From NCBI GenBank assembly GCA_965215235.1, contig OZ244053.1:1953649-2017648 (forward strand): a DNA stretch of 64,000 nt, read 5' to 3'. The first letter of the stretch is position 1. The number at the start of each line of letters is the position of its first letter. Positions 1-27,852 of the stretch are shown one piece after another. A program made the position numbers and the translations under genes. The stretch comes from Terriglobia bacterium. GTDB lineage: Bacteria > Acidobacteriota > Terriglobia > Versatilivoradales > Versatilivoraceae. The notes under the pieces are model-generated. The model saw only the letters and a program-made list of their open reading frames with translations. It was not told where the DNA came from and made no database searches.

Positions 1-1141
1 GCTCTCCCAAACAAACGTGCAGAACAAACACATGACCCGGCCTGAGCGCCTCGCGACTTCCAGCCAGCAGGAAGGGGCGTTCCGAATAGTCCAATCCTTG
101 ACCGTGACCGATCCGCCCGCCTTGAATTTCATACCCAAACCTTTCGGCGGCCCGATTGCCGACCTCGATCAGTTCGCCGATGGGGAGTCCCGGTCGGATG
201 ACCTTGAGCACCTCGTCCTGCACCTGCAAATTGGCTTCGACCATTTCTGCGGCGGCCTTGCCCAAAGTGGGTCCGATGGTCCCTGCGCGGTCACTTTGAA
301 TCCAATATCCTTTGTAAACCACATAGGCGTTGACGTTGATGTAATCGCCTCGGTTCAGCCGACAATCATGGCTCTTGACGGAAAGTTTGCCGGCCTTCAG
401 GTCGGTTCCCGGGGCCGTGTGCATGCAATGATAGACGAAGTCGGCGCCATGGCGCTTGGCCGCGGCGTCCATCTCGGCGGTAAGTTCATATCCCCACATC
501 TCCCGACGGAGAACCTCCACCATGCGCTGATAGCTGAGATCGGAAATCGCCGCCGACTTCTTCAGCAGACGGACCTCCTCCGGGGTTTTGAACTGACGAA
601 GCTCGGCCACGATGTCGGGCGCGTCCACAATGCCGCCCTCGAGGTTGGACTCCAGATCCCGGTAGACGGTGACCGGCATGGCCTCAATACCCGAGATGGC
701 GATGGGCCGACCAGCGACGCCGTTGGTCTTCAAGAGATGACTGATTTCAACTCCGAAACTGCGAGCCCCGCGGCTGGCCGCTTCTCCCCCGACACCGGGG
801 TCGAAGGCCCTGGAGATGGCCCGCGGGTCGGGAGAACTCACCAGCCGCACCTCACCGATCCAGGATACCTCCTCGATCTGGTCCAGCATGTATTCCACTC
901 CAGCCACCAGCAAAGCTGCGTCTCCCCGGCTGGGGACCAGAACCATGGCGTCGGTGATGCGATCCAGGTTGGACCAGTTGGTAAGATAACCCACGTGGCC
1001 GGTTTGATTCCACTGGTGAATCTTGGGAGCCGAGTAGACCACCACAGCGGAGAGGTTGCGGTCTCTGGCAAACTTGCGAACGTTTTCAATCCGCTGGTCG
1101 AATTCTGACCGGGGAATTTCATGTTCCTCTTTATTCCACAT
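1..1141 (-). CDS. M24-family metallopeptidase (Xaa-Pro aminopeptidase / creatinase-like), partial; its 3' end runs off the window start
   Basis: Minus-strand translation from the ATG at 1139-1141 (MWNKEEHEIPRSEFDQRIENVRKFARDRNLSAVVVYSAPK...) stays open to position 1. It contains pita-bread fold metal-ligand motifs (...GGRIGHGQGLDYSE...). It is absent from the ORF track because there is no in-window stop. The + ORF 17..1108 is its antisense shadow. Confidence 0.75.
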   Translation of the reverse strand, partial: MWNKEEHEIPRSEFDQRIENVRKFARDRNLSAVVVYSAPKIHQWNQTGHVGYLTNWSNLDRITDAMVLVPSRGDAALLVAGVEYMLDQIEEVSWIGEVRLVSSPDPRAISRAFDPGVGGEAASRGARSFGVEISHLLKTNGVAGRPIAISGIEAMPVTVYRDLESNLEGGIVDAPDIVAELRQFKTPEEVRLLKKSAAISDLSYQRMVEVLRREMWGYELTAEMDAAAKRHGADFVYHCMHTAPGTDLKAGKLSVKSHDCRLNRGDYINVNAYVVYKGYWIQSDRAGTIGPTLGKAAAEMVEANLQVQDEVLKVIRPGLPIGELIEVGNRAAERFGYEIQGGRIGHGQGLDYSERPFLLAGSREALRPGHVFVLHVCLGE

Positions 1142-1475
1142 CGCTCCTCCCTGGCCGACGAGGGTGGGGGTATCCGAAGGCCTGAGCGTTATTACGCCGT
1201 TGAAGCCGTTTGGCCTCCGGGACAGCCATCCCATCGCAGCCCAGTCAAAGGTGGATATTATTACAGACCGTGAGACCTCTCAACCCGGAGAGGTGTTGGA
1301 TTCTGGTCAGAGGGGATTTTAATCGACGCCAAAAGCGGGGACCGAAGCCGGGCGCATTGCATTCGTCTTCGACCTCCGCCTCGAACTCTCTCGGCTCCGA
1401 GTTATGCAGGTCGGCCAACGAATACGATTTCCGAGGCTTCGTCAAACCCTATTGCCAGGAGAACTCCAGATAAAC

Positions 1476-1510
1476 AAGAAGGGGTCTGAAAGATTCAGAC
1501 CCCTTCTTTG
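1476..1510 (-). terminator. Rho-independent terminator-like hairpin downstream of hsp20
   Basis: Perfect 14-bp stem AAGAAGGGGTCTGA, loop aagat, then TCAGACCCCTTCTT, followed on the minus strand by GTTTAT. It lies 30 bp past the hsp20 stop. Confidence 0.55.
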
Positions 1511-1539
1511 CAACGGTTCTCCCTGCGGGACCGGCAGGC

Positions 1540-1986
1540 TCAGGCCAGAGATTTGACCGCTATCCTCTTCGGCAGGGCAGCCTCAGCGACCGGAGCCGTG
1601 ATCTCCAGGACCCCTTGATTGAAAGAGGCTTCGATCTTTTCCAGGTCCGTACCCTCCGGCAGGAGCAGGGTTTGCTCATACCTGCCGTAGGAGAAGCCCT
1701 TCACGTGCCAGTTATCCTGCTTGACGTCGGTCGGGGCCTTCCGCTCCACCTGGACAGTCAGCCTCCCATCAACGATTGAAAGATCCACGTCTTCGGGATC
1801 CACACCCGGCAAGGCCAACCGGTAGACAGTCCGCCCCTTTCTTTCAAAGGCCTCGATCTCAGGGCGGAATGTCCTGCTCTGCGGAAAAAGCCAGACACCC
1901 GGGCTCCAGGCATCGTTAAAGAAACGGTCGAACTGCCGATCAAAAGAGGGAAAGTCGTTAAACAGTCTTCTTGAAAGTGCTAACAT
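1540..1986 (-). CDS. Hsp20/alpha-crystallin family small heat-shock protein
   Basis: The alpha-crystallin domain is recognisable (...YRLALPGVDPEDVDLSIVDGRLTVQVERK...GVLEITAPVAE). Start chosen at the ATG at 1986, which has an AGGAGG RBS. The ORF track extends it to 2043. Confidence 0.85.
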   Translation of the reverse strand: MLALSRRLFNDFPSFDRQFDRFFNDAWSPGVWLFPQSRTFRPEIEAFERKGRTVYRLALPGVDPEDVDLSIVDGRLTVQVERKAPTDVKQDNWHVKGFSYGRYEQTLLLPEGTDLEKIEASFNQGVLEITAPVAEAALPKRIAVKSLA

Positions 1987-2231
1987 TTGGGGACCTCCTG
2001 GTCTTGGGTTTTCAAAAGTGTTGTCCTGGATCCAACGTCTCAACTTCGTTCGACAGAATATTTAATACCCAAGCACCGGCATGTCAAAGAACCTGATGAA
2101 TTCATCGACAGATTCTCATCTTCTTGTCGGGGTCCATGACCCGTAATAGAAACATCTCACTTAGAATTAACTGTTTATGAGCCAATTGTTTTAGGATCCA
2201 AAAAAGTTCCAATGGAACAGGGAGGAGTCCA

Positions 2232-3494
2232 ATGGTGAGGAGAATGCTTCCAGTCTTAGTCATTACCTTGGTTTTCCTGCAGGGGTCAGAGGCCGGCAAC
2301 TGGCCGCAATGGAGGGGCCCCACACTCGACGGCATCAGCCCGGAAAAGGCGTTGCCCGTTTCCTGGGACAGGCAGAAGAACATCACCTGGGAGCTGCCGT
2401 TGCCCAGCTTCAGCGGTTCCACCCCCATAGTCTGGGGCGACTCCATCTTTCTCAATGTTGCTGACGGGACGGATCTCTACTTGTGGTGCGTGGGCCGCGA
2501 GAAGGGTGTCTTGAAGTGGAAGCGGCGCCTGGGCCGGGGAAACGTCAAAATGCGAAAGCAAAACATGTCGTCTCCCTCCCCTGTCACCGATGGCCGATCG
2601 GTCTATGTCATGACCGGAACCGGCATCCTCAAAGGATTTACCCTCAGCGGCCAACTGTTGTGGACGCGCGACATCCAGAACGACTACGGAAAGTTCGGAC
2701 TGAACTGGGGCTATGCTTCCTCTCCGCTTCTCCACCAGGACGACCTCTTTATCCAGGTTCTCCACGGGATGAAAACCGATGATCCCTCCTATATCCTGCG
2801 AGTCAATGGCAAGACCGGCAAGACCCTCTGGAAAGTGGAGCGCCCCACGGCCGCCATCCGGGAATCCCCGGATTCCTACACCACGCCGACCCTGGCGCAC
2901 ACGGAACGGGGTGTGGAGCTTGTGATCACCGGCGGCGACTGCGCCACAGGTCATGACCTGGCCAGCGGTCGCGAGCTATGGCGAGTGAATGGGTTCAATC
3001 CCACCAACAACCCCTACTTTCGGGTGGTTGCTTCTCCGGTGGTAGCGGACGGCCTGATCTACGCGCCCACTCGGGTGAAGCCGTTGATGGCCATTCGACC
3101 GGGCGGTCGCGGGGATGTGAGCCAAACCCATCGCGTCTGGTCGTTTGAAAACGGCCCGGACGTCTCCACTCCGGTGGTCGATGGCGCTTTCTTCTATTCG
3201 GTCAGCGACAAGGGGGTGATGTGGTGCCTGGACGCCAAGAGCGGAAAGGTGATTTGGGGAGGACAACGACTTGAACCCGGGATCTACAGTTCCTCACCGG
3301 TATTGGCCGACGGTAAGATCTACGTGAGCAACGAGGATGGACTGACCACCGTCGTCAAGGCCGGGCCCCGTTTCCAGATCCTGGCCGAGAATCCCTTGAA
3401 CGATTATTGCCTCAGTTCCCCGGCGATTTCCGACGGACAGATCTTCATCAGGACGGCGGAACGTCTGTTTTGCATTGGCCAACGTCGGCAATGA
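2232..3494 (+). CDS. Secreted PQQ-like beta-propeller repeat protein (BamB-like fold)
   Basis: Signal peptide MVRRMLPVLVITLVFLQGSEA. Repeated WxxGxxxDG / SSPVVADG / SSPAISDG propeller blades. GGAGGAG RBS upstream of the ATG at 2232. Confidence 0.75.
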   Translation: MVRRMLPVLVITLVFLQGSEAGNWPQWRGPTLDGISPEKALPVSWDRQKNITWELPLPSFSGSTPIVWGDSIFLNVADGTDLYLWCVGREKGVLKWKRRLGRGNVKMRKQNMSSPSPVTDGRSVYVMTGTGILKGFTLSGQLLWTRDIQNDYGKFGLNWGYASSPLLHQDDLFIQVLHGMKTDDPSYILRVNGKTGKTLWKVERPTAAIRESPDSYTTPTLAHTERGVELVITGGDCATGHDLASGRELWRVNGFNPTNNPYFRVVASPVVADGLIYAPTRVKPLMAIRPGGRGDVSQTHRVWSFENGPDVSTPVVDGAFFYSVSDKGVMWCLDAKSGKVIWGGQRLEPGIYSSSPVLADGKIYVSNEDGLTTVVKAGPRFQILAENPLNDYCLSSPAISDGQIFIRTAERLFCIGQRRQ

Positions 3495-3566
3495 GGGTCA
3501 CGCCGGTGAGAGCGAGAAGGGTCCCCGGCAACGAGCCGGACCAGCGCTTGCCGGCGAGAGTTCCCA

Positions 3567-4472
3567 TTATTGCCAGCGCTTGGCATGAGCCACGAAGTCG
3601 AAGTCCAGATACTCTTTCCAGCGATCCATCAATCGGAGCGTGCACTTCCCCGGCTTTCCCTCTCCGATGGACTGGCGGTTGAAGCGGGTGACCGGCATCA
3701 TGCACAGAGAGGTGGCGGTCATGAATGCTTCATCTGCCGTGGCTGCGTGGTAGGGTTGGAGATCCGCCTCTCTTACCGTCATTCCCAGTCCCCGGGCCAG
3801 CTCAATGGTGGTCAGTCGACTCACTCCCTGCAGGATGTTGCGCTCGGTGGGAGTCAACAACTCTCCCCGATGAACCACGAAAAAATTCCAGCCGGTACCC
3901 TCGGCCAAATTCCCCTGGTGGTCCAGCATCAGGGGCAGAGCTTCAGGATCGACCAGCCGGGCCTCGGCATCGGCCAGTGAAAAGTGCAGGCGGCTCCGAT
4001 ACTTGATCTTGGGATCTACCGTCAGGGGATGCATGTGCCGCGTCGCCGGCGTCACCACATGCAACCCCTTGTCATAGTAGGCCGCCTTCTGTCTCAGTCC
4101 GGGAGCCATGGGGTAGAAATACATCACAAAGGTTGACTCGGTGGGCGGCAACACCAGTCCCATTCGACCTCGACTCACCAGGTGTCCTACCCCACCTTCG
4201 TCACCCTCTTCCAAGGTCGGCAGGTTGTCCTCCAAAAATTCCTGAGTCACCTGGTCCAACTCTTCCGGAGTCAAGCCGAGGTTCAGTCTGGCTCCTTTGA
4301 CGGAGCGAAGCAAACGATCCCGGTGGTCCGGCCAACGAAACAACTTGTGATGGAAGGTCCGGGCTGTTTCAAGAACGGCATCTCCAATCAGAACGGCACT
4401 GTCGAAAATCGAAATCCTGGCTTCCTCTTCCGGAAACTTTTCTCCATTGATATAGACCTGCCTCTGCTTCAT
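3567..4472 (-). CDS. Class IV aminotransferase (branched-chain amino acid or D-amino acid aminotransferase family)
   Basis: MKQRQVYINGEKFPEEEARISIFDSAVLIGDAVLETARTF... is a typical fold-type IV PLP enzyme N-terminus. GGGAGGG RBS before the ATG at 4472. The ORF-track extension up to 4664 is probably not translated. Confidence 0.8.
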   Translation of the reverse strand: MKQRQVYINGEKFPEEEARISIFDSAVLIGDAVLETARTFHHKLFRWPDHRDRLLRSVKGARLNLGLTPEELDQVTQEFLEDNLPTLEEGDEGGVGHLVSRGRMGLVLPPTESTFVMYFYPMAPGLRQKAAYYDKGLHVVTPATRHMHPLTVDPKIKYRSRLHFSLADAEARLVDPEALPLMLDHQGNLAEGTGWNFFVVHRGELLTPTERNILQGVSRLTTIELARGLGMTVREADLQPYHAATADEAFMTATSLCMMPVTRFNRQSIGEGKPGKCTLRLMDRWKEYLDFDFVAHAKRWQ

Positions 4473-4719
4473 CTTACCCTCCCATGGTTGCTCCTGGATT
4501 GAGCCAGCGAACTGGATGAATGGCGCCGCCAAAAGGAGCCGGCCGACGCCGATGAGCGCTTCGTTGACACCCCTGTCCCGGTTGACTCCGTTGACCCGGT
4601 CCAATAACATTCCGCCGTTGGCGGCAACAAGGCCAATAATACGATAGTCCTTGGGATGCTGCACGAAATCCTGGGTTGTCTTTGATCGAAACCATGGCTG
4701 CTTTCAGAGGCTTGGATCG

Positions 4720-5592
4720 TTGCGAATTCTATTGACCGGCTCCAGCGGGCGGGTCGGCCGAAATCTGTTGCTGGACGGACTGGCCAATCGTCACCAGGTC
4801 ACGGCCTTCGACTGGGTTCCACCCAAGACAAGGCTGAACAATGTCAACTACATCGCCGGAAGCATCCTGGATCGAAAAGATCTGTCCGATGCCATGGAGG
4901 GCGCTGAGGCCGTCATTCACCTGGCGGCGATCCCTTACGACATTCCCCCCTTGCACCAAGTGTTCCAAATTAACGTTCAAGGCGCCTACCACGCTCTTGA
5001 ATTGGCCGTTGAGCATGGGGTACGCCATTTTCTTCGCGCCTCCAGTCTGATGGTCTACGGCTTTGGCCGCAACGCCGAGGCTCGATACCTGCCGATAGAC
5101 GAGGAGCACCCTGCTTCCTCGCATGACACCTATGGGGTGGGAAAGCTGCTCACCGAATCCCTCTGCCGGGCGTTCACCGACAAGTTCGGTATTCGCACCC
5201 TCTGCTTTCGCCTCACTCACTTCACAGCCTTCTTTCGGCCCTATGGCGATCGTTTCCCCTATGACGACGACTCGGGAATCCAAGGTTTGCACGAGTACAT
5301 CGAATCCAGGGATCTTGTGGAACTGCTGGAATCGGCCCTGGTTTCAAAACAGATCCAGCACGACGTCTTTTTAGCATCGGGGCCGGATTCCGGTCACGTC
5401 CTGCCCACCGAAGAGGTGATCCGGAAGTATCATCCCAGGGCGGAATTGCGCTATAGCCGGCTGGAAGCAATCTCCCCATTCATTTCCATGGAGAAGAGTC
5501 GGCGGCTCCTGGGCTTCGCGCCCCGGAGTAGTTGGAGAGACTTCGGATTGACTGCCGAGGGACTGGTCAATCGCCCAACCCAGGCCGAGTGA
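4720..5592 (+). CDS. NAD-dependent epimerase/dehydratase (SDR family)
   Basis: Rossmann motif RILLTGSSGRVGRNLL and catalytic YxxxK (YGVGK). The start is uncertain: TTG at 4720 or further upstream in the ORF from 4651. Confidence 0.7.
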   Translation: MRILLTGSSGRVGRNLLLDGLANRHQVTAFDWVPPKTRLNNVNYIAGSILDRKDLSDAMEGAEAVIHLAAIPYDIPPLHQVFQINVQGAYHALELAVEHGVRHFLRASSLMVYGFGRNAEARYLPIDEEHPASSHDTYGVGKLLTESLCRAFTDKFGIRTLCFRLTHFTAFFRPYGDRFPYDDDSGIQGLHEYIESRDLVELLESALVSKQIQHDVFLASGPDSGHVLPTEEVIRKYHPRAELRYSRLEAISPFISMEKSRRLLGFAPRSSWRDFGLTAEGLVNRPTQAE

Positions 5593-5777
5593 GGGAGACA
5601 ACAGTCGTCTTTAGACCCGGAAAGCTCGATTGGGGGCTCATTGCCGACGGCCGCCTTGAAGACGGCGAAGAGTTCCAATACAATGAGGGAGTCAATCATT
5701 CAATCGGCGGTTTCTGTTCGCTCCCGTCCCAAGGCTCGGGGCCACTCCACCGCCGTCCCCGACTCGACCACTCAACC

Positions 5778-8006
5778 ATGAGCAAACTCCTGATTATCTC
5801 GAATCGGCTACCTGTCACGGTCAAGTCGGAGCGGGGCAAGATTAGCGTGACCGAGTCTATCGGGGGCTTGGCAACCGGACTGCACGGCCCCCACCAATCG
5901 GGGGAGTCGCTGTGGGTGGGTTGGCCCGGAGAGGTCTCGCGTTTGGACAGCCAGCGAGCCCACCTGGAGGAGAAACTATCGGACCTTCGGGCCGTTCCGG
6001 TCTACTTGACCCAGAGCGAGATCAACCGTTATTACGAGAGTTTCTCCAATGGCGTGCTCTGGCCGTTGTTCCACTATCAGACCGACCGACTTCAACAAGA
6101 TGCCTGGCGCCATTGGACAACCTACCTGAAAGTCAACCAGCGCTTTGCCGAAGTCGCAGCCGAGCACTACCGAACAGGTGACCTGGTGTGGGTTCACGAT
6201 TATCAGCTCACCCTCGTCCCCGCCATGCTCCGTCGTCTCCTCCCCGAGGCCAGAATCGGATTCTTTTTACATATCCCCTTCCCTTCTTCCGAAGTCTTCA
6301 GGATTCTCCCCTGGCGGGCCAAGATTCTGGAGGGAATTCTGGGGGCCGACTTGATTGGATTTCACACCTACTCCTACATGCGGCATTTCGTCCGGGCGCT
6401 ACTGCTGGTTCTGGGTGTGGAATCCGAAGGAGAGTTGCTGTCCTACGGAGATCGGAAAGTTCTCCTGGGCGTTTTCCCCATCGGGGTCGACGCCGCCGAG
6501 TTCGGGCGCCTGGCCAATGAAGAATCGGTACTGGCCAAGGTGGAGGCCATTCGAAAGGAATGCGGTGGGCGAAAACTGATCGTGGGCGTGGACCGCCTCG
6601 ACTACACCAAAGGACTGCCGCGCCGCATGTTGGCCATGGATCGACTGCTGGAGCGGGAGCCCTCATTGAGGGACAAGGTGCGCATGATTCAGATTGTGGT
6701 TCCTTCTCGAACCAAGGTCGACTCCTACGAGCAGTACCGCCGAAAACTGGATGAACTGGTGGGTCGGATCAACGGGGCTTACGCTACCGTGAATTCCGTG
6801 CCCATTCACTACCTCTATCGCTCGGTTCCTCAAGCCGAGTTGGTGGCGCTCTATCGCTCGGCAGACCTGATGCTGGTCACTCCCCTGCGCGACGGAATGA
6901 ACCTCGTGGCCAAGGAGTTTGTCGCCTCCCGTACCGATGAGGACGGCATTCTGATCCTGAGCGAGTTTGCCGGAGCAAGCGAAGAACTCCGAGAAGCAGT
7001 ATCCGTCAACCCTTACGATATCGACGGCGTAGCCACCATCCTCAAGAAAAATCTGATGCTCCCGGAGGAAGAACGCCGCGCCCGAATGCGGGTCTTGCGA
7101 AGTCGCGTATTGACCTATGACTCCTACTACTGGGCCGACAACTTTATCAAGGCCCTGCGCACGGCTCCCGGCGTCAAACCGGAACCCTTGCAGACGCTGT
7201 CGGCCACCGCAAAGATTCAGGGAATGCTGGAAAAGCTGAGCCGGGCCGATCATTTGCTGCTGCTGCTGGACTATGACGGAACGCTCGTACCTTTTGCCAG
7301 TTCGCCCCAATTGGCCGTCCCGGATCCGGAGTTGAAGAAACTGCTCAAGGCGTTGGCAGCGCGACCCGGCACCGCCGTTCACATCGTCAGTGGCCGTCCC
7401 ACCCAAGTCCTGGGGAGTTGGCTGGGTGGAATGCCCATCGGACTGCATGCAGAACATGGCTTCTGGTCTCGCCTGGGACCGGGACGGTCATGGCAGAGAA
7501 ACGGCCCGGTCGATTCCAAGTGGAAGGAAGTCATTCTGCCCATTCTGGAGCAGTTTGCGTCCTGGACGCCGGGGTCCCTGATCGAGCGGAAGAGCGCAGG
7601 TCTGGCCTGGCACTATCGCATGGCTGACCCCGAGTTTGGCAAAATTCATGCCCAGGATCTGCAATATCGCATCGAACGCAGTCTACAGGGTCTGCCTGCC
7701 GAGATGCTGGTGGGCCACAAAGTGATCGAGGTGCGGACCCGGGGTGTGCACAAGGGCATGATTGTGCCCCCTCTGGTGGAGGCGGGAGACGGTGATTGGA
7801 CCATCCTGGCCATGGGAGACGACCGGTCGGACGAGGAGTTATTCGCCGCACTTCCGCCTGAGAGCTTTGCCATCCACGTGGGTCCCGGTGAGAGCCGGGC
7901 GGACTATAGACTGGCCAATCCAACGGCAGCCCGCGCATTCCTCACCCAGATCCTTCAAACCAGAACCAAGCCCCGCAAAGAATACGTTTTCAGCGCCAAT
8001 GCTTAG
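5778..8006 (+). CDS. otsA: Bifunctional trehalose-6-phosphate synthase (GT20) / trehalose-6-phosphate phosphatase (HAD) fusion
   Basis: The N-terminal 480 aa match OtsA ([13 protein letters not shown]...LWPLFHY...). The C-terminal ~260 aa are an OtsB-type HAD phosphatase ([14 protein letters not shown]...[10 protein letters not shown]). ATG at 5778. Confidence 0.9.
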
Positions 8007-21894: not shown

Positions 21895-22216
21895 GCTTTT
21901 CCCGGAAACCCTGCATCCCTGCCACCGGAGCCCGATTGGATGGGCCGGCCGGTTGATTCATTGCCAACTTCAACCCAAGTTTGAAATTATAGCAGAATCG
22001 CTCCGCGGCCGAGGTGACAACCGGAGGCTGCGTGTCTGACTCCGTGCAGGGTTTCTTTGGACAAGTCCCGGCCATTGGGTCAGTGATAGAATGTCGCGAG
22101 TTCTGGCCTTGCGCGCCGGTCGGGAGCTTCGGGCAGCCGTTCACCTCCGATCTCGACCAGCTCAGTCCTGGCCATGGCCCGAAGCTGCGATGCCAGAGCA
22201 CTTCCAATCAGGTTCC

Positions 22217-22813
22217 ATGACAACCACTATTCCAATGACGGGCTTTGCCTTGGCGGGAGGCAAAAGCACCCGAATGGGCCAGGATAAAGGACTTATCGAG
22301 ATTGGGGGACAGCCGCTGATTCAATTGGCGGTGAACCTTCTGAAGGGTTTGACCGATCAAGTCTTTATCCTCGGACCCTCCGAGCGATATGGATTCCTGG
22401 GCGTGCCCGTGTTGCCGGACAAAGTCTCCTCTCAAGGTCCCCTCAGCGCCATTTACACGGCGCTGGACAGTTCCAGGACGGCCCTCAATCTTTTTCTGGC
22501 TTGTGACATGCCCTTGATGCAACTTCGCTTTCTGAAGCTTCTGGTGGAGCGAGCCCGCCAGGTCGATGCGGTCCTGATGCGCTTCGAGGACGGCAGCCTG
22601 GAGCCCTTGTGCGCCATCTATGGTCGCTCCTGCCTTGCAGCAGTCCGAGCCAATTTTGAAAAGCAGCGGTTCAAGCTCTCCGACCTGCTGGCCGAACTAA
22701 CGGTGGCCTACATTACGGAGACGGATCTCCGTCATCTGGGACTGGACAGAAGGATCTTCACCAACCTGAACACTCCGACGGACTTGAAACAACTGGAGCT
22801 GGCTTCTCGCTAA
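22217..22813 (+). CDS. mobA: Molybdenum cofactor guanylyltransferase MobA
   Basis: MTTTIPMTGFALAGGKSTRMGQDKGLIEIGGQPLIQ...LACDMPLM... MobA NTP-transferase motifs. ATG at 22217. Confidence 0.8.
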   Translation: MTTTIPMTGFALAGGKSTRMGQDKGLIEIGGQPLIQLAVNLLKGLTDQVFILGPSERYGFLGVPVLPDKVSSQGPLSAIYTALDSSRTALNLFLACDMPLMQLRFLKLLVERARQVDAVLMRFEDGSLEPLCAIYGRSCLAAVRANFEKQRFKLSDLLAELTVAYITETDLRHLGLDRRIFTNLNTPTDLKQLELASR

Positions 22814-22904
22814 CGCCTCGGGAGCGCGGGCATCCTGCCTGAATTTTTCCTGGAAGTCTCCGTGAAATTCCCGGGAACGCAGGGGGCTCTCCCGCCTGTC
22901 GAGA

Positions 22905-23340
22905 GCAGCCTGAAAAAAAAGAAAGAGAAGTTCCCATTGCCGAGTACGAGGTTAAAGCCTCCATCCGGACCTCGAATCTCTGGCTCAAGAAGAACAGAGG
23001 CTCCGCTGGCTCCGCGAGATCGTCGTCCGGCTGCCCGAGGTCTATCGCCAAGTCCTGGAACTGCGCTACGGCCGGGACCTTTCTCCCGACAAGACCGCCG
23101 CACAACTCCACATCTCCCGCACGAACGTCAACACCCGCCTGAACCGCGCCGCCGCCCTGGTGAGGCGACGTCTGGAAGCCCACCTTCAACGAAAACACTT
23201 CGTCCCCAAGGCAAAGGGAAGCCTCTCATAGAGCAGGCTGAGGACGGGTCCCGCAGCGGACCGGGAGCAGCCTGAAAAAAAGTTGTGACCGCGAGCCGTT
23301 TCAAGACTCTATATAGGTAGAGGGTGATGCATTCCTCATC
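22905..23340. repeat. Direct repeat copy 1 (~93% identical to 24575-25010): 3' third of the ECF sigma gene, its downstream spacer and the leader of the next gene
   Basis: Base-by-base alignment: aaagagaagttcccattgccgagtac...ctatataggtagagggtgatgcattcctcatcgcaaccgtag versus the same string at 24575-25010. The left junction gagcagcctgaaaaaaaa|gaaagagaag re-uses a cctgAAAAAAA motif that also follows each copy. Confidence 0.7.
22956..23232 (+). pseudogene. Orphan 3' fragment of an ECF sigma factor gene (region 4 only, no start codon)
   Basis: In-frame translation SLAQEEQRLRWLREIVVRLPEVYRQVLELRYGRDLSPDKTAAQLHISRTNVNTRLNRAAALVRRRLEAHLQ is a sigma-70 region 4. A TAA at 22953-22955 precedes it and there is no region 2. 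Confidence 0.6.
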
Positions 23341-23504
23341 GCAACCGTAGCGTGTCTGGCTGTGTGGACCAGGAATACGTTTTCCAGCAGGGTTCTCTTG
23401 GGAGAAATTTGGGAGTATCATCACAACGATGGCAGGGAAAAATACGGACCACCTCAAAAGCTGAAAGTTCGGTAGTTCCCGCTCAGTGAAAGGGGCAAGG
23501 GATC

Positions 23505-24137
23505 ATGAGAATAAGACCAACTTTTCCATGGATTTGTCTTGGGCTTGGCTTGGCGGCATTCGGCGCCGCCTATGAGGTATTGGGACAAGAACCGAATCGA
23601 GATGCCCAGGCTGAAGAAGCCCTGAAGGGTCTCATTCACCAGTTGCCCCATGCCGGACATCCAGACGATTTCCTTTTCCAGCTTTTGGGTAAAATGCGTT
23701 ATGCAAGTGGAAAGGGCGCTTCTGTTTGCATGTTCGTCCGCAAACAATCCTACCTGGAAATGACAAGCCTGCTCGACCGTCAAGGCGTCGTTACGGAACG
23801 TGGGTGGGGCGACATATCGTTCGAGGCCAAGCCGGGGTGGAAAGTCAGCCAGGCCAGAGTATCGGGAACCATGTCCCGAATAGACTCCCGGACCATGGGG
23901 ACGAATGAGGGTAAAGCCACTACGGCGCTCATCAAGGACAGGTTTTCAGAAGGCCAAAAAGCCTATCCGCACGCATACAACGGACTCGTAGGCGCCGGCA
24001 AGATAGAAGTCGATTGCCAGGCGATGTCTCCGGAGATGGTCAAGAAGCATGGTCCTGCTCCGCGTACGTACCGATGGTACTGGTCGTTGTTCCGGCGCAC
24101 GGATCCCAACAGCCCAAACCCCTCCGCGAAGCAATAG
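23505..24137 (+). CDS. Hypothetical secreted protein (cargo 1 downstream of the sigma fragment)
   Basis: Signal peptide MRIRPTFPWICLGLGLAAFGAAYEVLGQEP, homologous to the N-terminus of the ankyrin protein at 25023. The rest has no recognisable family. Confidence 0.5.
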   Translation: MRIRPTFPWICLGLGLAAFGAAYEVLGQEPNRDAQAEEALKGLIHQLPHAGHPDDFLFQLLGKMRYASGKGASVCMFVRKQSYLEMTSLLDRQGVVTERGWGDISFEAKPGWKVSQARVSGTMSRIDSRTMGTNEGKATTALIKDRFSEGQKAYPHAYNGLVGAGKIEVDCQAMSPEMVKKHGPAPRTYRWYWSLFRRTDPNSPNPSAKQ

Positions 24138-24255
24138 CGCCAGGATTTGAACGGGTTTCAAGCCGTTTGGCTTCAGGGGCGCGAAGGCGGTTGAAGTCGG
24201 CAAAGGTGACAGACTGATAGGGTGATCGCAAATCCATGGAGGTCCCGGGATCAAA

Positions 24256-24887
24256 ATGTGTCCTCGAAAATCACGCAAATCGTCTGAATGTTTTCCCATC
24301 CTCCGTGACTCCGGGCTCGAACGAGCCGCCGTACCCTGTCCCCTCCTGGAAGGGAAAGAGGAAGCCTGGGTCGCCTGTTGCTCCAAGCGCTTCTTCCCTC
24401 TGGCCCGGCGCATCGCCGGGGAGGACGACCTGGCCCAAGAAGTCCTTCAGGAAAGTTGGGCCAAGATCCTGAAGGCCATCCATGCCTATCGCGGCGGTTC
24501 CCCCGCCTGCGCCTGGGTGCACGCCATTGTCTCCCACAGCGCCATAAAAGCCGGCAAAGCGCGCTCCAAAGCCAGAGAAAGAGAAGTTCCCATTGCCGAG
24601 TACAAGGTCAAAGCCCTCCATCCGGCCCCGAATCTCTGGCTCAAGAAGAACAGAGGCTCCGCTGGCTCCGCGAAATCGTCGTCCGGCTGCCCGAGATCTA
24701 CCGCCAAGTCCTGGAACTGCGCTACGGCCGGGACCTTTCTCCCGACGAGACCGCCGAACAACTTCACATCTCCCGCACGAACGTCAACACCCGCCTGCAC
24801 CGCGCCGCCACCCTGGTGAGGCGCCATCTGGAAGCCCGCCTTCAACGAAAACACTTCGTCCCAAAGACAAAGGGAAGCCTCCCATAG
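24256..24887 (+). CDS. ECF (sigma-70 family) RNA polymerase sigma factor; region 2 and region 4 are in different frames, needing a -1 shift near 24612-24630
   Basis: Frame 1 carries region 2 (...DDLAQEVLQESWAKILKAIHAYRGG...). Frame 0 carries region 4 (ESLAQEEQRLRWLREIVVRLPEIYRQVLELRYGRDLSPDETAEQLHISRTNVNTRLHRAATLVRR). The join lies in aaagCCCtccatccgGCCCCgaat. Confidence 0.7.
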
Positions 24888-25010
24888 AGCAGGCTGAGGA
24901 CGGCTCTCGCAGTGAATCGGGAGTCTCCCGAAAAAAAGTTGTGACCGAGAGCCGTTTCGAGAGTCTATATAGGTAGAGGGCGATGAATTCCTCATCGCAA
25001 TCGTGAAGAA
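24575..25010. repeat. Direct repeat copy 2 (partner of 22905-23340)
   Basis: See copy 1. Copy 2 is embedded in the full-length sigma gene and lacks ~150 bp that copy 1 has before its downstream gene. Confidence 0.7.
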
Positions 25011-25022
25011 AGGAGAAAGACG

Positions 25023-25388
25023 ATGAAAAGGAATCTGGGTTTTCCACTTTTCTGCCTGGTGTTCGGGCTGGTGGTGTTTGGTGTGTCCTATACACTGCTG
25101 GGCCAAGGTCCGGGTAGTGGACCCGGAGACTTGACCGGCAATGAGGAAGTGGGGCCGGTGGCTGTTGTGAGTGAATTGTTTGAAGTGATTGAGGGTGGGG
25201 ACGTTGCAGCTTTGGAAGACTTGTTGCGGAGTGGTGCTGATCCGAATGAGGCAAATGATTACGGGCATACTGCCTTGCATTGGGCTATTGCGACGGATTC
25301 TCCTGTCGTCTACGGTCAGGTTAGCGCACTTCTAAATGCTGGGGCGAATCCAAACTTGGCAGACAAAAAGGGACTGACACCCCTGTAA
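25023..25388 (+). CDS. Secreted ankyrin-repeat protein, apparently truncated after ~1.5 repeats (cargo 2)
   Basis: Signal peptide MKRNLGFPLFCLVFGLVVFGVSYTLLGQGP, then DYGHTALHWAIATDSPVVYGQVSALLNAGANPNLADKKGLTPL followed by a stop. A complete ANK protein would continue. GC content falls right after this point. Confidence 0.55.
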   Translation: MKRNLGFPLFCLVFGLVVFGVSYTLLGQGPGSGPGDLTGNEEVGPVAVVSELFEVIEGGDVAALEDLLRSGADPNEANDYGHTALHWAIATDSPVVYGQVSALLNAGANPNLADKKGLTPL

Positions 25389-25399
25389 TTGATGTAACC

Positions 25400-25804
25400 A
25401 TGAAAAAGAAGCGGAAAAACCCGTGGCTTGAACCGTGGATTGAATGGAAACCCAGATGGTGCCCCATATTGTACGTGGCAGGCATCTTGTTCGGTTTATT
25501 CTTCATTGTCGCCAAGAGATCCCCCTTTGAGGTGCTTTTTCCGCGTCTTTGGAAGAATCTGCTGATTGCTATTGCTGATGCTCATGCTGATGATCACTGG
25601 CTGGTTCTCTGGGTGGACTATTGGGGTTCCCAGTGGTACCACATTCCGTTGCTTGCTTCGGTGATTGGGACCTTGGGCAGGTGGCTGTTTAAATGGCGCC
25701 ACGCTGATGATTGGCGGCTGTGTGTGGGTGAGGTGCTGATGTATTCTGTCGGTCTCTTCGCTGTCACATATTTGGTTCAAGTGTTGGTCAAGTGGCTTTA
25801 TTAA
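25400..25804 (+). CDS. Hypothetical small membrane protein (3 predicted TM helices) in a ~50% GC insert
   Basis: MKKKRKNPWLEPWIEWKPRWCPILYVAGILFGLFFIVAK... with hydrophobic helices. Starts 12 nt after the ankyrin stop. Lower GC than the flanks. Confidence 0.4.
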   Translation: MKKKRKNPWLEPWIEWKPRWCPILYVAGILFGLFFIVAKRSPFEVLFPRLWKNLLIAIADAHADDHWLVLWVDYWGSQWYHIPLLASVIGTLGRWLFKWRHADDWRLCVGEVLMYSVGLFAVTYLVQVLVKWLY

Positions 25805-25985
25805 GGCGTACAGTAACGGTATTCCCCTGACAGCGCCCTTCCCATGCCTTCCCCTTCTATCTCTCACTTTGGAGTCGGACCTGAGTTCGGGGGAAGGTCA
25901 GACTTTCCATGATATGAGTCCGTCAAAGAAGGGCCCCCCCAGGAAAAGAGGCGAAGCGGCAACGTCAAAGCCCCGGTTTCCGCCC

Positions 25986-27626
25986 TCATTCGAGCCTTTG
26001 AGTCACCCTTAGAATGCGCCGGGATTGGAACTCGCTCGTCTTTCCAACCTCGGTTCGAGTGAAAAAAGCCGCCGGCTCGAACTCGGGAGAAGTGATGAAG
26101 AAGGCTTCAACGCCTGGCGGATAACTCATGTCACCTTCCGAGTAAACGATTCGGGCTTCGCTGTTCAAGTAGAAACCCAAGCCATAGGCCACGTTGCGTG
26201 AGATTCCATAAACGAACAGCGGCTGACCGACAAACCCTTCCTGCTGAAGAAAGGCTGCCAACCGACGGGACGACTGAGAGGAGTCCACCTGTGGAAAAAC
26301 GTCGCGGGTCACCAGGACAATCGAAAGCCCGACGGCCAACAAGTAGCAAGCCACCGACCACCGCCGCTGGTTGCGCCAGTAGAACAGCAAGGCCGCCACA
26401 CCCGCGCCCACAAAGAGCCCCGTGGCTTGCGGGAGGAAGGATGGCGTTGGCAGGTTCAGTTGATCGGCTGCGACAGGCAGAGCGAGGCCCAGCAGCAACA
26501 CGCTCAGAGCCTGATAGAAGAAGATATCTTCGAACCAGCGTCGCCTGTCCTCCTCTTGCTCTCGCTTGAGCCAGAGTTGAACCTGGCGGGCGATGAGCAA
26601 GGCTATGGCCGGGGCCGCCGGCAACAAGTAACCGGGCAACTTCGACCGGGAGAGAGAAAAAAAGACCAGCGGCGTCAGGAACCACAGCCAGAGATAGAGG
26701 TCTTGAGCGAAGGCTCTGGAGCGCCACCGGTCCCTGGCTCGAAACAGTGCTCGGCCAGCCGGAAGCAGTTGCAAGCTCCAAGGATAGAAGCCAATCAAGG
26801 CCACTGCCGGAAAAAACCACAAAGGTTGGGCATGTTCATAGCGATCGGTGAAGAACCTTTCAAGGTTGTGCCCCAATAGGAATTCCTCAACGAACAACCA
26901 GCCATTGACCCGGTAGCACAGCCCGTACCAGGGCAAAACGACCAGCAGCAGCGCCAGCACGCCGGTAAAGGGCCTGAGCTTGGACAGGAGATGGAGTCGC
27001 CCCGTGAGTCCCAGAAAGATAGCCAGACTGGCGATTGGCAGGATCACACCGACCGGCCCTTTAGCCAGCGTTGCCACTCCCAGGAAAGCATAGAAGGCCA
27101 TCAGCAGCCCCAGGCTGGGCCGACGAGCGGCTGAATCCCCCCAGAGCCCGCCTTTACCAAATAAAACAAAGAATAAACTGGTCCATGCCACTGTCAGAGC
27201 ACCGGAAAGCAGCATATCCGTGGAAGCGGCCCTCGCCAGCGGAAAATAGAGCAGTGAAGCAGACAGGATGAGGCAGGCCAGCAACCCCTCCCGGGGCTCA
27301 CCCCGCTGCTTGCCGAGAAAATAGACACAAAACACTCCCAGGACAGCAGCTACAGCCGAAGGCAGTCGAGCGGCAAACTCGTTGATCCCAAAAAGAAGAT
27401 AGGCCACCGCGGTCAGCCAGTAATAAAGGATTGGCTTCTCCAGCCACGGCTCTCCGAAGTAGCGAGGCGTCACGTAGTCGCCCGAGACCAACATCTCTCT
27501 TGCTATTTGGGCATAGCGAGGCTCATCCGGTCCCACCAATCCCAGATCGCCCAGAGCGAAGAAGAACTGAAGCCAGACAAACGGAAGAATCAGAAGCAGA
27601 TGACTGGGTTGGATTGGCCTGGGCAC
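25986..27626 (-). CDS. ArnT/PMT-family (GT83/GT39-like) membrane glycosyltransferase
   Basis: ...LGLVGPDEPRYAQIAREMLVSGDYVTPRYFGEPWLEKPILYYWLTAV... carries the DE-x-RYA motif and ~12 TM helices. The start is uncertain (GTG about 27626). The ORF-track extension to 27746 overlaps the upstream small ORF. Confidence 0.8.
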   Translation of the reverse strand: MPRPIQPSHLLLILPFVWLQFFFALGDLGLVGPDEPRYAQIAREMLVSGDYVTPRYFGEPWLEKPILYYWLTAVAYLLFGINEFAARLPSAVAAVLGVFCVYFLGKQRGEPREGLLACLILSASLLYFPLARAASTDMLLSGALTVAWTSLFFVLFGKGGLWGDSAARRPSLGLLMAFYAFLGVATLAKGPVGVILPIASLAIFLGLTGRLHLLSKLRPFTGVLALLLVVLPWYGLCYRVNGWLFVEEFLLGHNLERFFTDRYEHAQPLWFFPAVALIGFYPWSLQLLPAGRALFRARDRWRSRAFAQDLYLWLWFLTPLVFFSLSRSKLPGYLLPAAPAIALLIARQVQLWLKREQEEDRRRWFEDIFFYQALSVLLLGLALPVAADQLNLPTPSFLPQATGLFVGAGVAALLFYWRNQRRWSVACYLLAVGLSIVLVTRDVFPQVDSSQSSRRLAAFLQQEGFVGQPLFVYGISRNVAYGLGFYLNSEARIVYSEGDMSYPPGVEAFFITSPEFEPAAFFTRTEVGKTSEFQSRRILRVTQRLE

Positions 27627-27663
27627 GGTGATTCGGGAAGGACGATGCTGGCTGGACGTTCGG

Positions 27664-27852
27664 TTAGTAATAGTCCGAACAAGACATGTAGTACCCGCAC
27701 TTGGGACAGCGGAGCTTGCAGTGGTCGGGCTGCAACTCGAGACCACATTGAGGGCAGAACAGGCAAAGGGCCTTTTTCTCGGTCCGAGAGGCTTGAATAC
27801 GTTCCCCGGACGGTCTGGCCTTGTGAGGGTTTGTGGAAGAGAAGGAATTCAA
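27664..27852 (-). CDS. Possible small zinc-ribbon protein
   Basis: A 62-aa ORF with CPQCG-x13-CPKCG (two CxxC pairs) between trxA and the arnT-like gene. TTG start and no clear SD. Confidence 0.3.
   Translation of the reverse strand: MNSFSSTNPHKARPSGERIQASRTEKKALCLFCPQCGLELQPDHCKLRCPKCGYYMSCSDYY

Follow-up and report, generated by a model that had tools for sequence, protein, structure and literature searches.

A repeated sigma-factor 3′ tract and a conserved promoter-like element in front of two unrelated predicted exported-protein genes in a Terriglobia bacterium

In the 64-kb stretch of DNA analysed here, referred to as the window, a 429-bp repeat composed of the 3′ half of a sigma-factor gene, its UTR and the adjoining spacer is confirmed as real and above chance (Table 1). 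We favour, with moderate confidence, the view that two neighbouring and partly broken copies of a multi-copy module share this repeat as their 5′ portion. The repeat would best be read as the outcome of recombination or gene conversion between paralogous modules of sigma gene, putative promoter and exported-protein gene, together with an illegitimate join at an A-run. Such a module would consist of an ECF sigma gene, a short UTR, the element A7-GTTGTGACC-N4-GCCGTTTC... and the gene of a small exported protein. In the upstream copy, a dead sigma 3′ fragment is followed by an element that is still intact before the gene termed cargo 1, and the downstream copy comprises a full-length, frameshifted sigma gene and a 3′-truncated ankyrin gene, termed cargo 2.

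Table 1. Features of the locus and its flanks, in window coordinates
Feature	Position	Strand	Basis or remark
mobA-like NTP-transferase gene, left flank	22091..22813	+	Pfam NTP_transf_3, 116 bits; syntenic with L009-L016
Lineage-specific insert, ~3.2 kb, between convergent mobA-like and PMT_2 genes	22814..25985	.	tblastx synteny
Terminator-like hairpin and T-run after mobA	22826..22851	+	Consensus terminator scan
Left-junction motif CGAGAGCAGCCTGAAAAAAA	22900..22919	+	Copy of UTR 3′ hairpin arm and A-run at 23262-23281
Repeat copy 1	22920..23348	+	BLASTN, 92.1% over 430 columns vs 24576-25004
Dead sigma region-4 fragment (copy 1)	22956..23231	+	Translation; Sigma70_r4_2 44 bits (cut-off 25.7)
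UTR hairpin of copy 1, then A7	23234..23274	+	MFE -23.8 kcal/mol, z -3.3
Promoter-like element, copy 1: A7-GTTGTGACC-N4-GCCGTTTC ... GGTAGAGGG	23275..23325	+	Core invariant elsewhere
Unique 156 nt between repeat and cargo 1, absent from copy 2	23349..23504	+	Alignment
Cargo 1, 210-aa predicted exported orphan	23505..24137	+	Leader aa 1-30, helices, beta-sandwich aa 76-199
ECF sigma-factor gene, length complete, frame broken	24256..24887	+	Profile hits, frame analysis
Repeat copy 2	24576..25004	+	Sigma 3′ half, UTR, spacer; BLASTN
Promoter-like element, copy 2	24931..24981	+	Conserved core
Cargo 2, leader-bearing ankyrin-repeat protein, 121 aa, cut mid-repeat at 3′ end	25023..25388	+	Pfam Ank
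ORF134, orphan small membrane protein, right part of insert	25400..25804	+	Two hydrophobic segments
PMT_2 glycosyltransferase gene, right flank	25986..27746	-	Pfam PMT_2, 56.6 bits; syntenic in L016, L013

The two copies of the repeat, arranged directly and 1656 bp apart, share 92.1% identity in BLASTN over 430 columns, with 32 mismatches and two single-base gaps (E 5e-178) and an ungapped core of 300 nt at 92%, which lies above the ~80% limit that the earlier note had set for its claim of a duplicated sigma-3′/UTR/spacer tract. The self-comparison suggested in that note yielded this as the single non-self match for 22800-25200 against the whole window, and BLASTN revealed no third copy of the repeat in the 64 kb. 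Although the repeat stands, its left edge had been placed too far out (22905-23340); the true edge is at 22920, and the 20 nt before it form a separate motif. Both copies contain Sigma70_r4_2, the stop codon, the UTR and the spacer, and the similar part of the 1656-bp period amounts to these 429 bp plus a 90-nt leader at 58%. The differences between the copies are distributed over the three codon positions as 6/3/5, with a dN/dS of 0.63, and each copy has its own 1-nt deletion; a DGR-type, adenine-specific mismatch pattern was dismissed on inspection of the sequences. Since region 4 of copy 1 is slightly closer to the paralog P0006 than that of copy 2 (83% and 79% amino acid identity, respectively), neither window copy need be the direct source of the other.

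The sigma gene of the downstream copy is 632 nt long, and its repaired 210-aa product exceeds the cut-offs for Sigma70_r2 (26.7 bits, cut-off 24), Sigma70_r4_2 (51 bits, cut-off 25.7) and TIGR02937 (63.5 bits, cut-off 42.9). With regions 2 and 4 only and these family thresholds passed, the repaired protein agrees with an ECF sigma factor; its best NCBIfam subfamily matches are all below their own cut-offs, and a Cys-rich N-terminal part is conserved in its clade. The claim that this gene needs a -1 shift was borne out: regions 2 and 4 are in different frames, and comparison with copy 1 and P0006 reveals the loss of one base near 24623-24629, so that the uninterrupted frame of a functional sigma gene is lacking. 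The deposited annotation carries a 187-aa wrong-frame read-through product (P0004) which, as judged from the frames, is a frameshift artefact, and the frameshift taken alone could be a sequencing error instead of a real lesion. A programmed -1 ribosomal frameshift was rejected, as no slippery heptamer (X XXY YYZ) occurs at the site, which reads CCGGCCCCGAA, the reading frame of P0006 and P0008 runs through it undisturbed, and the indel in copy 1 is not the same. The upstream sigma fragment is a pseudogene, bounded by an in-frame TAA just 5′ of it (22953-22955) and a TAG stop (23229-23231), without a usable start codon and without an ORF of at least 50 aa in its frame. It is indeed truncated at its 5′ side, but it lacks the 5′ half of the gene (320 of 632 nt) and not the two thirds first proposed. 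An adjacent cognate anti-sigma factor is typical of ECF sigma factors, yet not universal. Neighbouring ORFs contain no anti-sigma domain in Pfam or NCBIfam, and an anti-sigma gene adjacent to sigma is absent from the seven loci examined (unannotated in L004, L006, L007, L041 and L042).

The module belongs to a family with several members in the same genome, whose other copies were compared with those of the window as proteins. Thus, the 5,235,193-bp contig that contains the window also encodes the sigma paralogs P0006 (78%), P0008 (64%) and P0042 (46%), and P0007 is a sigma 5′ fragment in which the first 114-115 residues are identical and the remainder, a tail with no match in the window, is unrelated. 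Two more leader-ankyrin proteins, P0058 (175 aa) and P0059 (202 aa), are encoded in this genome and share the leader of cargo 2, and the homology of cargo 2 to these paralogs ends at 25385 in all frames. The assignment of cargo 2 to the ankyrin-repeat proteins is upheld by scores above the Pfam thresholds (Ank_4 34.5, Ank 33.8 and Ank_2 32.1 bits), but the gene is truncated at its 3′ end, which had been overlooked. Among 1.84 billion representatives searched, the only relative of cargo 1 is the distant P0057 (E 9.6e-4). Its AF2 model (pLDDT 68, pTM 0.65), derived from an alignment of 2 sequences, gives only weak, generic matches to Ig/MSP-like beta-sandwiches in the PDB, and searches of PADLOC, PHROGs, NCBIfam and PDB sequences returned nothing specific for either cargo 1 or ORF134.

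The mature parts of the two cargo proteins are without similarity in BLASTP, and their 30-aa leaders are homologous, as had been proposed (14/30 identical, BLASTP E 3e-7). When the window is searched in six frames, each leader retrieves the other (E 9e-6) ahead of a next best match at 0.19, and the DNA identity of the two genes is 58% over the 90 nt of the leader and 23% over the next 90 nt. Both leaders present a single N-terminal hydrophobic segment, are basic at positions 2-4 and have GAA/GVS ahead of Y; from these features, a Sec-type signal peptide and an uncleaved signal anchor are equally possible.

The spacer between sigma and cargo genes holds a sharply conserved element. The 24 specified core positions of the element are invariant in both window copies and in the related loci L007 and L043, against only ~70-72% identity between the sigma coding DNA of L007 and that of the window. 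In L007 the order is IS4-like transposase ORF, sigma gene (~370 bp further downstream), spacer core and leader-ankyrin gene P0060, and in L043 the element lies 99 nt upstream of the gene for P0057, the sole cargo 1 homolog. The core therefore precedes both a sigma-adjacent leader-ankyrin gene and a cargo 1 homolog outside the window, which agrees with the idea of sigma-linked secreted cargo put forward in the earlier note. A variant of the element is found in L041 between the sigma gene of P0011 and three divergently transcribed genes for secreted proteins. The pattern A{5,}GTTGNGA occurs six times on both strands of 449 kb, twice in the window and once each in L001, L007, L043 and L044, the last two being one sequence recovered from two samples. 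Four of the six matches are located immediately 3′ of a sigma gene of the family of the window sigma, and the L043/L044 match stands at the start of its contig, with the cargo 1 homolog downstream. No further exact copies of the core were found in JGI metagenome contigs or viral contigs. The distance from the A-run to the ATG is 230 nt before cargo 1 versus 92-108 nt elsewhere.

This conserved cis element is probably the promoter of the sigma clade of the window, that is, a promoter of exported-protein genes that would most likely be read by this clade. By inspection only, the element fits an ECF-like layout, TGTGAC-N18-GTyTA, in which TGTGAC could act as a -35-like box and GTyTA, after an 18-nt spacer, as a -10-like box; a consensus scan of 22700-25900 detected no sigma-70 sites of the type TTGACA-N16-18-TATAAT. 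If the element is a promoter, cargo 1 and cargo 2 would both be members of the regulon. The element is absent upstream of the sigma gene of the window itself.

At the left edge of copy 1, the junction motif and the end of the UTR (23262-23281) are identical at 19 of 20 positions, a match that none of 500 shuffles equalled, and a 17-mer of the motif is exact (17/17) at both sites and nowhere else in the window. The junction thus re-uses a UTR motif ending in an A-run, as the earlier note had seen, which is consistent with an illegitimate join. Left of the junction, beyond these 20 nt of a "previous UTR", no homology is detectable, and since only 20 nt of UTR remain there, the join model has to assume either a further deletion or an insert whose start lay inside a UTR. 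A possible "GGSPAC" remnant of the 5′ part of sigma, upstream of copy 1 at 22878-22898, was discarded, 63 of 500 shuffles scoring equally. The hairpin and cctgA7 motif said to follow both copies is present at copy 1; at copy 2 the hairpin is weak and the motif reads CCCG-A7, not CCTG-A7, and the hairpin strength in copy 2 and in L007 is not better than that of shuffled sequences. An intrinsic terminator role of the hairpin and A7 was also rejected, given that A7 follows the hairpin on the + strand and on the - strand the T-run precedes it; the terminator scan made no call at the UTR hairpin of copy 1.

The locus lies between two genes that are adjacent in relatives. The gap between the mobA-like and PMT_2 genes is 3.2 kb in the window and, by tblastx synteny, ~250 bp in L016 (mobA ending near q2460 and PMT_2 starting near q2710) and ~50 bp in L013, two metagenomic loci whose flanking S55 protein is 75% and 67% identical to that of the window, respectively. 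The whole 3.2-kb block is therefore regarded as a lineage-specific insert, although its absence in relatives may reflect loss there and not gain in the window genome. Neither locus has the single sigma and cargo unit that the earlier note expected at orthologous positions, and L015, the closest relative, has other, unrelated DNA after mobA. The left border of the insert falls between the terminator-like hairpin after mobA and ~22900, and the true start of the mobA-like gene is probably near 22220. The borders show neither direct nor inverted repeats, and the ORFs of the insert contain no recombinase or integrase domain (Pfam, NCBIfam), so that an integron or integrative-element cassette was rejected. 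The insert has no match among plasmids, and Rfam gave one sub-threshold chance hit only. ORF134, whose DNA is lower in GC (48-51%), has no family matches and shows no relationship to the ORFs that follow the L007 ankyrin gene.

From these data, a sequence of events among paralogous modules can be proposed. Cargo-1-type and ankyrin-type modules would have existed separately beforehand, and the sigma-3′/UTR/element tract would then have been copied from one module copy to another by non-allelic recombination or gene conversion, giving rise to the 92% identity, while an earlier exchange reaching into the leader would have left the latter at 58%. The 5′ truncation of copy 1 could be due to an illegitimate join of the A-run that ends a module UTR to the purine-rich AGAAAGAGAAG inside the sigma gene. 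Since identity steps from 92% in the tract to 58% in the leader and to none in the mature part, more than one event or gene conversion is needed. We infer the donor, direction and timing of the copying, and both duplication and gene conversion are compatible with it.

A head-to-tail duplication in situ of one ancestral sigma and cargo unit at the hairpin/A7 motif, with later replacement of one cargo, would account for direct repeats 1656 bp apart, for a junction motif that re-uses the UTR end and for a homologous leader common to both downstream genes. We consider it unlikely, and the simple tandem duplication first proposed finds no support: only 429 bp of each 1656-bp period are similar, with identity passing through its three levels within one unit, and the truncated copy precedes the complete gene, whereas duplication of an internal-to-3′ segment would give the opposite order. 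Moreover, the loci of relatives have no sigma and cargo unit, and in another lineage a cargo-1-type gene is found independently with the same element. Less likely again is a broader reading of the exchange among modules, in which the sigma-3′/UTR/element/leader tract would be a portable "express-and-export" front end spread by recombination among unrelated ORFs.

It is very improbable that the locus works as a functional cassette switch, in which the partial sigma and its alternative cargo form a silent or orphan module exchanged by homologous recombination. A 429-bp homology tract with alternative downstream genes and a multi-copy family with several differently truncated members are what such a device would display, but the homology is one-sided, and a crossover joining the two direct repeats would remove cargo 1 together with the 5′ half of sigma, so that no sigma gene would be left. 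In addition, the fragment is upstream and not downstream of the full gene, the insert contains no recombinase, integrase or att-like repeats, and all the components are damaged; the cassette shuffling that the earlier note had envisaged fails, as a working switch, on geometry, one-sided homology and deletion outcome. Least probable of all is that the locus arose in assembly, through a mis-join or an expanded repeat, and that the frameshift is a homopolymer error: the junction is at an A8 run, the frameshift is in a C-run and related 2x-coverage long-read contigs such as L007 clearly hold frameshift errors, but the copies differ at 32 positions and 2 indels and are thus not one sequence assembled twice, the flanking genes align with relatives over ~14 kb as uninterrupted single HSPs in consistent frames, and P0004 and P0007 of the same genome represent several distinct fragments in the deposited assembly. 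Exchange among paralogous modules is retained as the favoured reading: the locus is ordinary gene-family turnover and not a special switching device, and it would represent a system that is decaying rather than acting as a switch.

Within the classification of ECF sigma factors (Casas-Pastor et al. 2021, PMC7826278), the window sigma resembles an ECF (group 4) sigma-70 in having only regions 2 and 4 in 210 aa, with a conserved bipartite motif nearby, and in adjoining genes that are probably under its control, as many ECFs do. However, the element is downstream of the sigma gene and faces the next gene instead of being upstream, and the clade differs in its lack of an adjacent anti-sigma, its Cys-rich N-terminal part and, in the window, a frameshifted gene. 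The start-less 3′ fragment and the relaxed substitution (dN/dS 0.63) are reminiscent of gene-fragment pseudogenes, and the sharp-edged, high-identity tract within divergent units and its microhomology/A-run junction of paralog homogenisation. Unlike common fragment pseudogenes, the tract keeps an intact cis element before a different, apparently intact gene, and the "dead" copy 1 may still matter as a promoter donor.

A further likeness, by analogy, is to the upstream-homology-box (UHB) ospE/ospF/elp (erp) gene family of Borrelia, reportedly described by Marconi and colleagues in 1996. UHB loci have a common, conserved upstream and leader-peptide region before mature proteins that differ or are unrelated, recombination builds mosaics, and the proteins are lipoproteins encoded on prophage plasmids. 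The window locus may be likened to them in its shared upstream region and leader with different mature parts; however, it has no sequence relationship to them, its shared tract includes part of a sigma gene, and only two to five members are visible. In orphan CDI/Rhs toxin modules and pilS silent cassettes, a silent module is exchanged with an expressed one. The window locus shares with them a conserved-gene fragment followed by an alternative downstream module, but its order and orientation are wrong for productive exchange and its homology is one-sided, and no toxin, immunity or pilin domains were found at the locus.

The locus illustrates the copying, recombination and decay of paralogous regulator-target modules, which is well-known biology, and it is a clear example of a promoter-plus-leader front end common to unrelated mature proteins, as far as the element may be taken as a promoter. 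For annotation, the 187-aa sigma product should be regarded as an artefact, the upstream fragment as a pseudogene and the ankyrin gene as truncated. If the improbable reading of a portable front end were true, new exported proteins would be tied to one ECF sigma regulon, the position of the front end upstream of the sigma gene, as in the window, would create a feed-forward or autoregulatory arrangement, and the locus would provide a bacterial counterpart to promoter-plus-signal-peptide shuffling, centred on a mobile ECF sigma module of marine Acidobacteriota. Most useful among the by-products is a conserved non-coding element tied to an uncharacterised, anti-sigma-less and Cys-rich ECF clade, which provides a testable candidate promoter and a candidate regulon of small exported ankyrin and beta-sandwich proteins.

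The duplicated sigma-linked tract lies in a 3.2-kb block (22814-25985) between the convergent mobA-like (22091-22813, +) and PMT_2 (25986-27746, -) genes which, judging from the comparison of loci, is a lineage-specific insert, since these genes are nearly adjacent in the relatives L016 and L013. Among 32 related metagenomic loci, fetched with the flanking S55-peptidase-like protein as query, L016 (75% identity) and L013 (67%) present the gene order S55, mobA-like, PMT_2, with convergent gaps of ~250 bp and ~50 bp, respectively. After the mobA-like gene, L016 has ~250 bp of AT-rich DNA (reverse complement, 2440-2710), L013 has almost nothing, and the DNA of L015, the closest relative, is GC-rich and unrelated (reverse complement, about 2460-2768); thus, the site is variable. 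This space, different in every relative examined, looks like an insertion hotspot; the insert has no flanking repeats and codes for no recombinase. The insert contains a sigma fragment, an orphan gene (cargo 1), the sigma gene, a truncated ankyrin gene (cargo 2), and ORF134, and the DNA after the ankyrin gene (25386-25985) is of lower GC content (48-51%).

Comparison of 22800-25200 with the whole 64-kb window by BLASTN yields a single non-self match and, hence, two copies and no further ones, aligned over 430 columns at 92.1% identity (E 5e-178; 32 mismatches, two gaps of one base each). The ungapped core detected by repeat search spans 300 nt (92%). Identity reaches 94.5% (241/255) in the region-4 coding part, 83% (44/53) from the stop codon to the A-run, and 91% (61/67) in the spacer. 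The repeat described in the earlier note is therefore borne out but not its exact edges, as copy 1 starts at 22920 and is preceded by a separate motif that matches the end of copy 1's UTR with a score reached by 0 of 500 shuffles, in agreement with the suggestion that the left junction re-uses a UTR-end motif. The sigma gene of copy 1 is missing its 5' half (320/632 nt) rather than the two thirds initially proposed.

Features of the insert and the left junction of copy 1 (window positions)
Feature	Coordinates	Remarks
Left-junction motif CGAGAGCAGCCTGAAAAAAA	22900-22919	20 nt; 19/20 match to 23262-23281
Copy 1	22920-23348	sigma 3' part, UTR, spacer
Cargo 1	23505-24137	210 aa, orphan
ECF sigma-factor gene	24256-24887	3' part lies in copy 2; domains in joined frames
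Copy 2	24576-25004	sigma 3' part, UTR, spacer
Cargo 2, ankyrin-repeat protein	25023-25388	121 aa
ORF134, orphan membrane protein	25400-25804	two hydrophobic segments

Its broken frame excepted, the sigma factor is by domain criteria a member of the ECF family, and the frame-joined 210-aa product passes Sigma70_r2 (26.7 bits), Sigma70_r4_2 (51 bits), and TIGR02937 (63.5 bits). The frame shift already noticed in this copy is confirmed, with regions 2 and 4 in different frames and P0004, the 187-aa product of the deposited annotation, in the wrong one. Relative to copy 1 and to the paralogs P0006 and P0008, which are in frame, copy 2 is one base short near 24623-24629 (CCGGACCTCGAA in copy 1 versus CCGGCCCCGAA in copy 2), where no slippery heptamer is found, and a different base is missing from copy 1 (GCCTCC versus GCCCTCC in copy 2). 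A homopolymer error is possible; nevertheless, the lesion is probably real, because ~14 kb of flanking genes are uninterrupted with respect to relatives. In copy 1, the region-4 frame contains a TAA at 22953-22955 and no start codon thereafter, and this copy is, as read from its frame, a dead sigma fragment. The dN/dS of 0.63 between the region-4 copies, with 6/3/5 differences at the codon positions, indicates relaxed constraint.

Cargo 1 has no relatives besides itself among 5.8 billion clustered proteins, and exhaustive HMMER against 1.84 billion representatives retrieves only P0057 (206 aa, E 9.6e-4), with 28% identity over 156 residues (pairwise E 2e-13). Its AF2 model (pLDDT 68) shows N-terminal helices followed by a beta-sandwich with generic Ig/MSP-like matches only. 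The homology of cargo 2 to longer paralogs ends exactly at its own stop codon, in mid-repeat, with no ankyrin homology beyond it in any frame and, thus, the gene is 3'-truncated; this cut adds a third rearrangement breakpoint to the insert. The claim of homologous leaders on unrelated mature parts is upheld, since 14/30 N-terminal residues are identical (BLASTP E 3e-7), DNA identity drops from 58% over 90 nt to 23% immediately past the leader, and an orphan domain follows in one case and ankyrin repeats in the other. Across all six frames of the window, the leaders match each other at E 9e-6, the next best being 0.19. The leader family includes two proteins of the same genome (P0058 and P0059) and one of another metagenome (P0060), in all of which ankyrin repeats follow the pattern M-K-x-x-R-x-x-L-x-F-P-x-L-C-L-x-F-G-L-x-V-F-x-V-S-(Y/C)-T-L-L-G-Q-x-(P/S)-G; in cargo 1, the leader has diverged further and precedes an unrelated mature domain. 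Both leaders display basic residues and then a single hydrophobic segment, which would fit a signal peptide or signal anchor. Approximately 156 nt unique to copy 1 (23349-23504), without Rfam match, separate cargo 1 from the conserved spacer element that begins with the A-run, and the element-to-ATG distance is 230 nt at cargo 1 versus 92-108 nt at the other three sites.

The 5,235,193-bp contig of the window also encodes the leader-ankyrin paralogs P0058 and P0059, the sigma paralogs P0006, P0008, and P0042 (78%, 64%, and 46% protein identity) and a second sigma fragment, P0007, identical to the window sigma over residues 1-114/115 and then continuing into an unrelated, AT-rich-looking tail (HMVEVRTYLKIIFHSIQFTKRM...). 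Since this break falls 22-40 nt past the left edge of copy 1, on its 3' side, both may reflect a recurrent breakpoint or the two sides of one rearrangement. The independent contig L007 (region 2040-4323) carries, in this order, a sigma gene of the same clade, the spacer, and the leader-ankyrin gene P0060, and an IS4-family transposase ORF (408 aa, DUF4372) lies ~370 bp upstream of the sigma gene. The L007 sigma gene is frameshifted, probably through errors of the 2x long-read contig, and P0060 is likewise short at its C-terminus. Sigma P0009 (55% identical) is encoded on the plasmid-like contig L004 (KELL22-1 scaffold_2513, 136-6478) together with ParA, ParG, RepA (RepA_C/DnaA_N), and MobC/NikA proteins. 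Tandem paralogous secreted proteins follow or flank sigma relatives in L006, L041, and L042; L041 (1-4678) holds three tandem exported-protein genes between two sigma paralogs, and L006 (6001-7846) a sigma gene and then two small proteins with near-identical leaders (MTRN(G/E)CLRRLAVLLLAAVLPATAG...). The window sigma (24256-24560), P0006, P0008, P0009, P0014, and P0042 share an N-terminal part rich in Cys, with the pattern C-PLL-(E/D)-G ... W-(V/I)-x-C-C-S-(K/R)-R-F-F-x-L-A ... G-G-(S/P)-P-A-C-(A/S)-W-V, and no anti-sigma gene adjoins the clade sigma genes at any of seven loci, which hints at redox- or metal-based self-regulation.

The element core, AAAAAAAGTTGTGACC-N4-GCCGTTTC, does not vary among the two window copies, L007, and L043/L044, with shared positions beyond it (T..TA, GGT(A/G)(G/A)AGG), and the sigma coding DNA of L007 and the window is just 70-72% identical. 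The regular expression A{5,}GTTGNGA has six matches in 449 kb (both strands), four of them directly 3' of a family sigma gene (twice in the window, in L007, and as A7-GTTGCGA in L001, a Bryobacterales MAG). The remaining two (L043, L044) represent one sequence from two samples, at a contig start and upstream of the cargo 1 homolog, where any preceding sigma gene would lie off the contig. In L043, whose first 22 nt resemble the L007 sigma UTR, the ATG of P0057, the cargo 1 homolog, follows the element at a distance of 99 nt and, thus, both cargo types are preceded by the same element in another lineage. L041 has a variant, A8-CTGTGAC-N6-CAGTTTGGAGACTCT, between the gene of sigma P0011 and three secreted-protein genes transcribed divergently from it, and the variant is oriented towards these three genes. 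The element has no sigma-70 promoter match and, by inspection, an ECF-like layout (TGTGAC, 18 nt, GTyTA(W), A-tract upstream); it is the putative promoter of the exported-protein genes, presumably read by this sigma clade. Upstream of the L007 sigma gene (3540-3600), AAAAATTGTAAG-N18-GTTACT has a similar layout and could be an autoregulatory promoter; the window sigma gene has no equivalent (24138-24255). The hairpin before the A-run is strong in copy 1 only (z -3.3) and not conserved, and was rejected as a terminator because A's, not T's, come after. Short-read (Logan) contigs break exactly at the A-run/GTTGTGACC element or immediately before it (L008 position 1, L043/L044 1-22), as expected if the upstream sigma-UTR sequence were also repeated in those genomes.

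These features fit a history in which paralogous modules of two cargo types already existed and underwent recombination or gene conversion with each other. The recent tract would comprise the sigma 3' part, UTR, and element, an older exchange would have extended into the leader, and an illegitimate join at the UTR A-run would have cut short the first sigma gene. Speculatively, element 1 might drive cargo 1 and, as the sigma gene 118 nt downstream lacks an element of its own, transcription might read through into it, although the sigma frameshift weakens this reading. The earlier description of the locus stands, but its one-step tandem duplication is contradicted by the extent of similarity (429/1656 bp), the identity steps (92%, 58%, none), the truncated copy upstream of the complete gene, and the absence of any sigma-plus-cargo unit, expected in relatives, at the orthologous L016 and L013 locus. 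A working cassette switch is implausible because homology is one-sided and a crossover of the two direct repeats would remove both cargo 1 and the 5' half of the sigma gene.

The repeat combines a gene-fragment pseudogene with a duplicated regulatory region, within a multigene family, and such features are of a known kind. The locus was also tested against CDI/Rhs orphan modules, pilS cassettes, and integron cassettes, none of which fits. [quoted passage not shown] Of most use among the side results is the conserved element, as a candidate promoter cognate to a Cys-rich ECF clade that is uncharacterised and has no visible anti-sigma partner, in apparently marine Acidobacteriota.
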